This document shows, piece by piece, positions 42,288 through 44,556 of a stretch of DNA of 64,000 bases; position 1 is the first letter of the stretch, and the number at the start of each line of letters is the position of its first letter. A program made the translations under genes and the position numbers. The notes under the pieces are model-generated. The model had not been told where the DNA came from and ran no database searches. It worked only from the letters and a program-made list of their open reading frames with translations. This DNA comes from Escherichia coli (lineage in GTDB: Bacteria > Pseudomonadota > Gammaproteobacteria > Enterobacterales > Enterobacteriaceae): assembly GCF_003334385.1 (NCBI RefSeq), contig NZ_QOWN01000018.1, one strand, 5' to 3'.

Positions 42288-42309
42288 CCCTGGCTTATGT
42301 GAGGAAGCG

Positions 42310-42852
42310 ATGATTATCTATTTACACGGTTTTGACTCTAACAGTCCGGGTAACCACGAGAAAGTCTTACAATTGCAGTTTATTGACCCGGATGTACGCT
42401 TGATAAGCTACAGTACGCGGCATCCGAAACATGATATGCAGCATCTGCTTAAAGAAGTGGACAAAATGTTGCAACTGAACGTTGACGAGCGTCCGCTAAT
42501 TTGCGGCGTTGGCTTGGGCGGATACTGGGCGGAACGGATTGGTTTTCTTTGCGACATCCGCCAGGTGATCTTCAACCCTAATTTGTTCCCTTATGAGAAC
42601 ATGGAAGGCAAGATTGATCGCCCGGAAGAGTATGCCGATATTGCCACTAAGTGTGTGACCAACTTCCGTGAGAAGAATCGCGATCGTTGCCTGGTGATTT
42701 TGTCGCGTAATGATGAAGCGCTTAACAGCCAGCGGACATCTGAAGAGTTGCATCATTATTACGAGATTGTCTGGGACGAAGAGCAGACGCACAAATTCAA
42801 GAATATCTCCCCGCATTTACAGCGCATTAAAGCGTTCAAAACCCTCGGGTAA
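42310..42852 (+). CDS. ycfP: UPF0227 alpha/beta hydrolase-like protein YcfP
   Basis: ORF 42253-42852; start at [11 protein letters not shown] (180 aa). Confidence 0.9.
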
Positions 42853-42859
42853 ATGCCCT

Positions 42860-42985
42860 CGTCGCATCAGGTAACCTTGCCGGTACCTGATGCGCTCCGA
42901 ATTCTGTGGGTCGGATAAGGCGTCCACGCCGCATCCGACAGTCGAGCATCAATGCCTGATGCGCTTCTTATCAGGCCTACCGAAC
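42860..42985. repeat. BIME (three REP-like units) between ycfP and ndh
   Basis: gcatcaggtaaccttgccggtacctgatgc; gtcggataaggcgtccacgccgcatccgac; gcctgatgcgcttcttatcaggc. Confidence 0.75.
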
Positions 42986-43101
42986 GCCCTGCATACACCC
43001 CTCACTCTATATCACTCTCACAAATTCGCTCAAATAATAAACAATAAACTCTGTTTTTTGATCTCACCCGGTAAAGTCGCCTATCTTTTCAGCAACAAAA
43101 C

Positions 43102-43115
43102 TTGATTAACATCAA
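43102..43115 (+). promoter_or_regulatory. FNR binding site upstream of ndh
   Basis: Perfect TTGAT-N4-ATCAA (ttgattaacatcaa) ~140 bp upstream of ndh start; ndh is a known FNR-repressed gene. Confidence 0.6.
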
Positions 43116-43251
43116 TTTTGGTATGACCAATGCACCATTCATGTTATTCTCAATAGCGAAGAACATTTTCATTGCTGTAACCTGTTGTTAATTAAGAGCT
43201 ATGTTAATAACCATTAATTAACAATTGGTTAATAAATTTAAGGGGGTCACG

Positions 43252-44556
43252 TTGACTACGCCATTGAAAAAGATTGTGATTGTCGGCGGCGGTGCTGGTG
43301 GGCTGGAAATGGCAACACAGCTGGGGCATAAGCTGGGACGCAAGAAAAAAGCCAAAATTACGCTGGTCGATCGTAACCACAGCCACCTGTGGAAACCGCT
43401 GCTGCACGAAGTGGCGACTGGCTCGCTTGATGAAGGCGTCGATGCGTTGAGCTATCTGGCCCATGCGCGCAATCATGGTTTCCAGTTCCAGCTGGGTTCC
43501 GTCATTGATATTGATCGTGAAGCGAAAACAATCACTATTGCAGAACTGCGCGACGAGAAAGGTGAACTGCTGGTTCCGGAACGTAAAATCGCCTATGACA
43601 CCCTGGTAATGGCGCTGGGTAGCACCTCTAACGATTTCAATACGCCAGGTGTCAAAGAGAACTGCATTTTCCTCGATAACCCGCACCAGGCGCGTCGCTT
43701 CCACCAGGAGATGCTGAATTTGTTCCTGAAATACTCCGCCAACCTGGGCGCGAATGGCAAAGTGAACATTGCGATTGTCGGCGGCGGCGCGACGGGTGTA
43801 GAACTCTCCGCTGAATTGCACAACGCGGTCAAGCAACTGCACAGCTACGGTTACAAAGGCCTGACCAACGAAGCCCTGAACGTAACGCTGGTAGAAGCGG
43901 GAGAACGTATTTTGCCTGCGTTACCGCCACGTATCTCTGCTGCGGCCCACAACGAGCTAACGAAACTTGGCGTTCGCGTGCTGACGCAAACCATGGTCAC
44001 CAGTGCTGATGAAGGCGGCCTGCACACTAAAGATGGCGAATATATTGAGGCTGATCTGATGGTATGGGCAGCCGGGATCAAAGCGCCAGACTTCCTGAAA
44101 GATATCGGTGGTCTTGAAACTAACCGTATCAACCAGCTGGTGGTGGAACCGACGCTGCAAACCACCCGCGATCCAGACATTTACGCTATTGGCGACTGCG
44201 CGTCATGCCCGCGTCCGGAAGGGGGCTTTGTTCCGCCGCGTGCTCAGGCTGCACACCAGATGGCGACTTGCGCAATGAACAACATTCTGGCGCAGATGAA
44301 CGGTAAGCCGCTGAAAAATTATCAGTATAAAGATCATGGTTCGCTGGTATCGCTGTCGAACTTCTCCACCGTCGGTAGCCTGATGGGTAACCTGACGCGC
44401 GGCTCAATGATGATTGAAGGACGAATTGCGCGCTTTGTATATATCTCGCTATACCGAATGCATCAGATTGCGCTGCATGGTTACTTTAAAACCGGATTAA
44501 TGATGCTGGTGGGGAGTATTAACCGCGTTATCCGTCCGCGTTTGAAGTTGCATTAA
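43252..44556 (+). CDS. ndh: type II NADH:quinone oxidoreductase (NDH-2)
   Basis: ORF from 43225; likely TTG start at 43252 giving [18 protein letters not shown] (FAD GxGxxG), 434 aa. Confidence 0.94.

Follow-up and report, generated by a model that had tools for sequence, protein, structure and literature searches.

The spacer upstream of ndh, the gene for NADH:quinone oxidoreductase II, raises the question of which regulators read it, and of what the AT-rich repeats that immediately precede the start codon represent. The sequence analysed was a stretch of 64,000 nucleotides from Escherichia coli (contig NZ_QOWN01000018.1), referred to below as the window. A first-pass annotation, made from the letters alone, had described positions 42990-43251 as the ndh control region. 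This identification was borne out, as the sequence is identical to that of K-12 and the exact FNR box within it is the mapped FNR repressor site. We conclude with high confidence that the stretch is a composite control region, identical to that of K-12, in which a sigma-70 promoter is read by FNR, PdhR, phosphorylated ArcA (ArcA-P) and nucleoid proteins that share AT-rich DNA.

This is already-known biology. The earlier interpretation is supported, with ArcA and PdhR added to it, and ndh stands as a textbook promoter that integrates oxygen (FNR), the redox state of the quinones (ArcA) and pyruvate (PdhR), so that the locus has little discovery value. What is added to the known locus is a cross-genus footprint, the observation that the conserved leader blocks form an inverted repeat and, provisionally, a second FNR site that is specific to one genus.

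Locus and reference frame

The ndh coding sequence (43252-44556, plus strand, 434 aa) begins with TTG, as placed by the RefSeq annotation of the identical K-12 sequence and by the open reading frame. Its upstream neighbour is ycfP (42253-42852), leaving a spacer of 399 bp between ycfP and the TTG at 43252. Position 43251, at which the region had been ended in the first-pass annotation, is exactly the final base of the leader (TTG at 43252-43254). A 443-aa reading frame opening at 43225 was discarded as merely an in-frame upstream extension of ndh, the annotated and conserved start being at 43252.

Window positions 42253-43952 (and 42853-43260), which run across ycfP-ndh, recur without a single difference in E. 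coli K-12 MG1655 NC_000913.3. The FNR box, for which a disruption relative to K-12 had been raised as a possibility, is therefore intact. Published coordinates were converted utilizing U00096.3 = window + 1,122,833 and U00096.2 = window + 1,122,056. There is no difference from the K-12 ndh promoter studied by Green, Guest and co-workers (1994-1997), by Ogasawara/Ishihama for PdhR, and by Rolfe et al. (2012) and Park et al. (2013) for ArcA; the published K-12 sites (FNR at -50.5, the PdhR box and ArcA at +46/+77) all fall exactly on the window. Among 5426 complete E. coli genomes, 4576 matched a 166-bp core at 99% identity or better.

The first third of the ycfP-ndh spacer (42855-42985) holds palindromic units of the REP/BIME type, with repeats of CCTGATGCGCT at 42886 and 42955 and several inverted repeats. 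Matches to the Rfam family naRNA4 (REP-like) were obtained at 42909-42977 on both strands, just under the gathering score (56.5 and 52.5 bits vs 59.5). Other genera have a plain terminator stem and T-run at this position. A 'constitutive' promoter predicted in the spacer by Shimada et al. (2014), CTCACA-17-AACAAT, maps to ∼43017-43045, some 115-140 bp ahead of the accepted start, and is unconserved outside Escherichia (0.30).

Collection of orthologous loci and the conservation footprint

Orthologous loci were retrieved by means of a degenerate DNA pattern that falls within ndh codons 4-21. The sample is unbiased toward upstream motifs because this pattern lies in coding sequence. A single scan of one-genome-per-species contigs returned 113 loci, from Citrobacter, Salmonella, Enterobacter, Klebsiella, Raoultella, Kosakonia, Leclercia, Lelliottia, Cedecea, Pluralibacter, Mangrovibacter, Atlantibacter, Phytobacter, Mixta, Biostraticola and others; Yersinia, Serratia, Pantoea, Dickeya and Proteus are absent from it. 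Motif counts refer to the 102 orthologues for which 200 nt or more of upstream sequence was available, and identity to E. coli was taken from a 101-sequence alignment. Three loci (L019, L063 and L067) were set aside. These are second ndh copies, in Enterobacteriaceae bacterium RIT691, Enterobacter sp. 10-1 and Raoultella terrigena, with ∼77% protein identity and neither an FNR nor a PdhR box upstream. An enterobacterial ndh, its product 92% identical to E. coli Ndh, also came from a contig labelled Chryseobacterium sp. 18061 (CACSKA010000011.1, L053). All of the FNR, PdhR and leader elements are in place there, and this assembly is probably mislabelled or contaminated.

The 217 four-fold synonymous sites of ndh, utilized as the neutral baseline, gave an identity to E. 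coli of 0.49. Against this baseline the FNR half-sites stood at 0.99, the PdhR box at 0.98, the extended -10 at 0.95, leader block A (43177-43195) at 0.92, leader block B (43207-43239) at 0.89 and the stretch from the Shine-Dalgarno sequence to the start codon at 0.90. The 4-bp FNR spacer gave 0.44, positions +1 to +18 gave 0.52 and the interval between the two leader blocks (43196-43206) gave 0.63. The footprint is clean, with selection on the elements and drift in the intervening sequence. Across the Enterobacteriaceae, the core under selection is made up of FNR I, the PdhR box at its fixed 16-bp distance, the extended -10 and both leader blocks. All motif exceptions among Enterobacteriaceae loci were one-base variants, and the outlying Erwinia typographi (L106) was the sole locus in which the PdhR box was altogether lost.

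The FNR operator and a putative second FNR site

The exact TTGAT-N4-ATCAA palindrome TTGATTAACATCAA (FNR I) lies at 43102-43115, where the first-pass annotation had reported it, and is centred at -50.5. It was read on the plus strand. It is the sole exact match to TTGATNNNNATCAA in the 64-kb window. Shuffles of the window gave an expectation of 0.12 exact matches, and 12 of 100 shuffles contained at least one, so the count by itself is just marginally beyond chance and the case rests on position and conservation. The exact consensus was present in 96 of the 102 loci with at least 12 different spacers. The half-sites are under selection and the spacer is drifting at the neutral rate.

In K-12 the ndh FNR site is tabulated at -50.5 and the gene is classed as 'directly repressed' (Myers et al., 2013, PMC3688515). 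The FNR ChIP-seq peak of the same study, at 1,165,151 (U00096.2), corresponds to window 43095, 13 bp from the centre of the site, and an FNR-dependent fall in ndh expression was accompanied by anaerobic loss of sigma-70 occupancy. The comparison with the mapped K-12 FNR site that had been proposed as a check therefore ended in agreement. The FNR-repressed promoters of fnr (operator at -0.5) and of can and hisL (-11.5) share with ndh the consensus, the regulator and the anaerobic decrease in sigma-70, but their operators lie over the core promoter, whereas that of ndh is upstream of it. Simple occlusion of the -10 and -35 elements therefore cannot explain FNR repression of ndh.

A putative weak second site (FNR II), TTGATctcaCCCGG, was located on the plus strand 44 bp upstream of FNR I; it retains the left half-site only and has 4 mismatches. 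It occupies 43058-43071, which we take to be the -94.5 position of FNR II of ndh. That repression of ndh needs two upstream FNR sites is the title statement of Meng et al. (1997), as cited in PMC3411108. A TTGAT at the 44-bp offset from FNR I was found in Escherichia loci only (4 of ∼95), mean conservation of 43058-43071 was 0.28, and in other genera this position is taken by the ycfP terminator stem and T-run. On this provisional placement, the reportedly necessary second FNR site is genus-specific. The two-site model of FNR repression may accordingly not generalise beyond Escherichia, because the second site is absent elsewhere and other genera have the ycfP terminator in its place. An FNR-like sequence with 2 mismatches, TTAATAACCATTAA at 43204-43217, was also considered as the second site and rejected, since it lies inside the ArcA repeats described below, which explain it better.

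Just upstream of the FNR box, the sequence TATCTTTTCAGCAnCAAAAC (43072-43101) is moderately conserved (0.58) and has no factor assigned to it in the available literature. A Fis site that we assume to lie near -72 of ndh would fit it. The minus strand of the FNR box itself (43102-43111) contains TGTTAATCAA, an ArcA-type 10-mer with one mismatch, which coincides with the ArcA site predicted at -57 (Rolfe et al., 2012). Because TGTTAATCAA overlaps the FNR box, binding there by FNR and ArcA may be competitive or cooperative.

The PdhR box and the core promoter

The FNR box is adjoined by a palindromic box for PdhR, a pyruvate-responsive GntR-type repressor, which was absent from the first-pass annotation. 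The box, ttTTGGTatgACCAATg, occupies 43116-43132 and is centred at -35, with the core TTGGTATGACCAA at 43118-43130. It matches the PdhR palindrome AATTGGTnnnACCAATT with 3 mismatches (11/14 positions match). Table 1 of Anzai et al. (2020, PMC7660256) gives the PdhR box of ndh as ttTTGGTatgACCAATg at 1,165,180; this converts to window 43124, exactly the midpoint of 43116-43132. A genomic SELEX peak, gel shift and RT-qPCR were reported there for PdhR at ndh, and pyruvate relieved binding. In naphthoquinone-dependent strains obtained by laboratory evolution, mutations fixed in the PdhR box raised ndh expression (PMC12510636).

The core TTGGTnnnACCAA was exact in 93 of 102 loci, and the FNR and PdhR boxes kept a constant 16-bp start-to-start offset in all genera sampled. 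The PdhR boxes of pdhR-aceEF-lpd and cyoABCDE are built on the same AATTGGTnnnACCAATT palindrome. That of ndh differs in that its flanking AAT/ATT is weaker than in pdhR's own box (14/14) and in that it abuts an FNR site.

The promoter is best described as a sigma-70 promoter with an extended -10, TGtTATTCT, and a weak, probable -35, aTGACc. The extended -10 (43142-43150, plus strand) lies 9 nt upstream of the published start point. In the alignment its TG and TATTCT were 95-100% conserved and the base between them ∼60%, and TGnTATTCT was present in 99 of 102 loci. The probable -35 hexamer (43123-43128, plus strand, 4/6 positions) was chosen from its 16-bp spacing to the -10. As it falls inside the PdhR box, repression by PdhR would be explained by occlusion. 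Transcription start (+1) was placed from the literature at 43159, plus strand, because it alone satisfies both published positions, -50.5 for FNR and +46/+77 for ArcA (43204-43235). A generic two-hexamer sigma-70/terminator scan of 42700-43400 called no promoter; such a scan is uninformative at ndh because the promoter combines a weak -35 with an extended -10.

The 5' leader runs for 93 nt on the plus strand, from the transcription start to the base before the TTG (43159-43251). Its Shine-Dalgarno sequence, AAGGGGG (43240-43246, plus strand), lies 5 nt ahead of the start codon and is ∼90-100% conserved. The start codon was TTG in 97 of 112 loci, GTG in 14 and ATG in 1. The GTG starts belong to the Klebsiella/Raoultella group and a few others, and the ATG was found only in Klebsiella pneumoniae ATCC 13883 (L102). 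The near-universal use of a start codon other than ATG suggests selection for weak initiation.

ArcA-type repeats in the AT-rich leader

An AT-rich segment with repeated motifs just before the start codon (43190-43245) had been noted as part of the upstream control region, and the counts agree with that description. The G+C content of the segment is 23.2% vs 51.6% for the window, a value as low as which was found in only 0.15% of 56-nt intervals, at 5 places. The window holds just two copies of GTTAATAA, at 43203 and 43228, and TTAATTAA is present at 43188 and 43214. Four copies of GTTAAT were counted over both strands of 43170-43251, vs 0.23 in dinucleotide-preserving shuffles of that stretch (0/5000 reached four; P<2e-4). 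The motifs do precede the start codon; however, with transcription starting at 43159 they lie within the transcribed leader (∼+28 to +77), downstream of the start point and not upstream of the promoter.

The core of these repeats coincides with an ArcA-P operator of three direct repeats with 11-bp spacing, TTATTAACCAA TTGTTAATTAA TGGTTATTAA, on the minus strand at 43204-43235. The supplementary tables of Park et al. (2013, PMC3798270) list a predicted three-repeat site at 1165260-1165291, minus strand, +46/+77, with the sequence TTATTAACCAATTGTTAATTAATGGTTATTAA, and this 32-nt string is the exact reverse complement of window 43204-43235. With the matrix of that study the three ndh repeats score 3.6, 12.5 and 8.0 bits and the ArcA box 18.7 bits. 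Enrichment of ArcA at ndh was 11.9-fold by ChIP-chip and 11-fold by ChIP-seq (PMC3798270). The ChIP peaks, at 1,165,227 and 1,165,239, correspond to window 43171 and 43183; their centres are ∼40 bp upstream of the predicted three-repeat site and closer to block A, a point that counts against the composite model. The available part of the same paper reports no footprint at ndh.

Phosphorylated ArcA represses ndh transcription in vitro (Rolfe et al., 2012, PMC3411108), and predicted ArcA sites at -57, +36, +52, +57, +66 and +68 are cited in that work. Park et al. entered ndh as 'ND', with no differential expression in the anaerobic arcA comparison (PMC3798270), and earlier array work suggested activation of ndh by ArcA. 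Reports on ArcA control of ndh in vivo thus disagree in sign and size.

A motif scan was run with WGTTAATTAW, which we take to be the ArcA consensus 10-mer of Lynch and Lin. Exact matches were returned at 43186-43195 on the plus strand and at 43214-43223 on the minus strand. The first of these, TGTTAATTAA, is contained in leader block A, GTAACCTGTTGTTAATTAA (43177-43195, plus strand), which may be a further ArcA site and to which the site predicted at +36 belongs; the second lies in the three-repeat operator, the conservation of which was 0.85 in the alignment. ArcA-P direct-repeat elements are the best explanation for the GTTAAT(T/A)A repeats. The multi-repeat ArcA-P operators of icdA, acs and astC (Park et al., 2013) share with ndh three direct repeats at 11 bp centre-to-centre, a strong central repeat and strong ChIP signals. 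Unlike these, the ndh operator is situated in the leader at +46/+77 and has a second exact 10-mer, inverted, 28 bp upstream. A possible leader peptide, from an ATG at 43201 and reading MLITIN-stop, was rejected, as G43203 is retained in just ∼10% of species.

Nucleoid-associated proteins as possible readers of the leader

The first-pass annotation had read the repeats as fitting multi-factor anaerobic repression by FNR and nucleoid proteins. Such repression is documented, but the repeats are not a tract for nucleoid proteins alone, given their match to ArcA-P elements, and PdhR had been omitted. The stronger form of that reading, in which the AT-rich tract mainly serves IHF, Fis, H-NS and HU for binding and bending, and the ArcA-like motifs are incidental to AT-richness, draws on several reports. 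H-NS binding is listed for the ycfP-ndh spacer (PMC3946193), and HU binding to the ndh promoter is attributed to Green et al. (1997) as cited in PMC2634741. Overlapping sites for six factors have been described at ndh in vivo, with IHF, PdhR, NsrR and ArcA named as likely occupants (PMC8282354); the literature search yielded no site position for NsrR.

Matches to the IHF core WATCAANNNNTTR with one mismatch were found at 43178-43190 (minus strand), 43219-43231 (plus strand) and 43222-43234 (minus strand), although such matches are common in AT-rich DNA. The first two of them, IHF-like TAACAAnnnnTTA matches, are centred at +26 (minus strand, in block A) and +67 (plus strand), and an H-NS-like TTAATAAATT lies at +75. 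Proteins of this kind tolerate drift, yet blocks A and B are conserved at 0.89-0.92, above both the neutral 0.49 and the 0.63 of the equally AT-rich stretch between them. The conserved cores are moreover exact ArcA 10-mers, ArcA gives strong ChIP enrichment, and ArcA~P represses in vitro on its own. We consider it doubtful that serving nucleoid proteins is the chief role of the tract, and favour ArcA-P as the main reader of the repeats; the two readings are not mutually exclusive.

The leader inverted repeat and a possible RNA hairpin

Blocks A and B are the arms of an imperfect inverted repeat of ∼24 bp, near-invariant in more than 25 enterobacterial genera, at 43178-43231 on the plus strand (+20..+73). 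The arms, 43178-43202 and 43207-43231, are complementary at 20/25 positions in E. coli, whereas no inverted repeat in 1000 shuffles exceeded 17 matches. ArcA-type repeats arranged as a conserved inverted repeat in a leader leave room for a role at the RNA level. The blocks could thus matter mainly as RNA, as a hairpin of ∼24 bp that ends 9 nt before the Shine-Dalgarno sequence and, together with the weak UUG/GUG start, sets mRNA stability or translation, or docks a protein or small RNA. This we regard as unlikely.

The E. coli leader RNA folds with the hairpin at -23.4 kcal/mol (z = -2.2), and in most other genera the helix runs on through 43196-43213 to ∼24 pairs. When this 24-pair helix was scored in 95 distinct leaders, 93% of cells were paired vs 22-53% with slid partners, and 20 cells carried double changes vs 5.6 ± 2.1 in shuffles, a count reached in 0/500. 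The retention of a start other than ATG in 111 of 112 loci would also suit control of translation. Most of the pairing is however explained by the invariance of the arms, 12 of the 24 pairs being at least 94% unchanged in primary sequence. This invariance exceeds the needs of a helix and so fits sequence-specific protein recognition, by way of the mirror-image ArcA 10-mers and the IHF-like TAACAAnnnnTTA. Measures robust to relatedness were not significant, the observed number of double-change pairs being reached in 58/500 shuffles and that of pair types in 34/500.

The covariation signal, weak overall, comes mostly from the pair 43192-43217 (UA 52, UG 13, CG 9, AU 2, GC 1, unpaired 18). Its five paired states occur in several unrelated genera, and the pairs 43196-43213 and 43197-43212 vary via G-U wobble, as a maintained helix would allow. 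Against this, 18 of 95 leaders break the pair 43192-43217 and 53 have a C-A mismatch at 43199-43210. RNAalifold on the 95 leaders did not recover the long helix, returning only a trivial 8-bp local palindrome with a consensus energy of -0.25 kcal/mol. An Rfam search of 42700-43500 gave no match in the ndh leader (43000-43500, E<=1), its sole matches being those to naRNA4 at 42909-42977, and a literature search found nothing on post-transcriptional control of ndh or on its mRNA with a small RNA. The arms are, in addition, exact ArcA consensus 10-mers with ChIP support.

An RNA-level function of the leader repeat is accordingly of low probability. It is likewise improbable, in our estimate, that the leader DNA has two functions, acting both as an ArcA/IHF operator and, through a hairpin at +20..+73 that would end 9 nt before the ribosome-binding site, as a post-transcriptional element, so far undescribed, that limits synthesis of Ndh-II. 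The notion that the FNR box and the repeats are functionless chance features of AT-rich intergenic DNA has next to no probability, for although an exact FNR consensus turned up in 12/100 window shuffles, it is already refuted by half-sites that are invariant around a neutral spacer in ∼100 species, by the published ChIP-seq occupancy (PMC3688515) and by a repeat count that 0/5000 local shuffles reached.

Proposed control of ndh

The model preferred here takes the site positions, in vivo occupancy and in vitro repression from the literature on the identical sequence, and the conservation from the present analysis. What we infer is the -35 assignment, the part played by block A, and how FNR (from -50.5) and ArcA-P (from +28..+77) act. 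Sigma-70 RNA polymerase would recognise the extended -10 (43142-43150) and the weak -35 aTGACc and initiate at 43159. Under anaerobic conditions [4Fe-4S]-FNR on the palindrome at 43102-43115 lowers RNA polymerase occupancy from its position at -50.5, and in E. coli the weak second site ∼44 bp upstream may help it to do so. PdhR on TTGGTATGACCAA at -35 blocks the promoter unless pyruvate is present.

ArcA-P would bind the GTTAAT(T/A)A repeats of the leader, namely the three direct repeats at +46/+77 on the minus strand together with the mirror-image exact 10-mer at +28/+37. Repression would presumably follow from a block downstream of the start, acting on elongation or promoter escape, or from wrapping of the DNA. 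Nucleoid proteins also occupy this AT-rich DNA, with H-NS in the spacer, HU at the promoter and, more tentatively, IHF and Fis.

A single genome among the 5426 complete E. coli genomes, that of strain P276M (NZ_CP044293.1, L115), has ∼165 bp of the control region (window 43013-43178) replaced by divergent sequence, with both flanks 100% identical. The patch retains TGgTATTCT but lacks the PdhR box and the right half-site of the FNR box (TTGATTAACGGCAC). Either a natural variant with derepressed ndh or an artefact of assembly may account for it.
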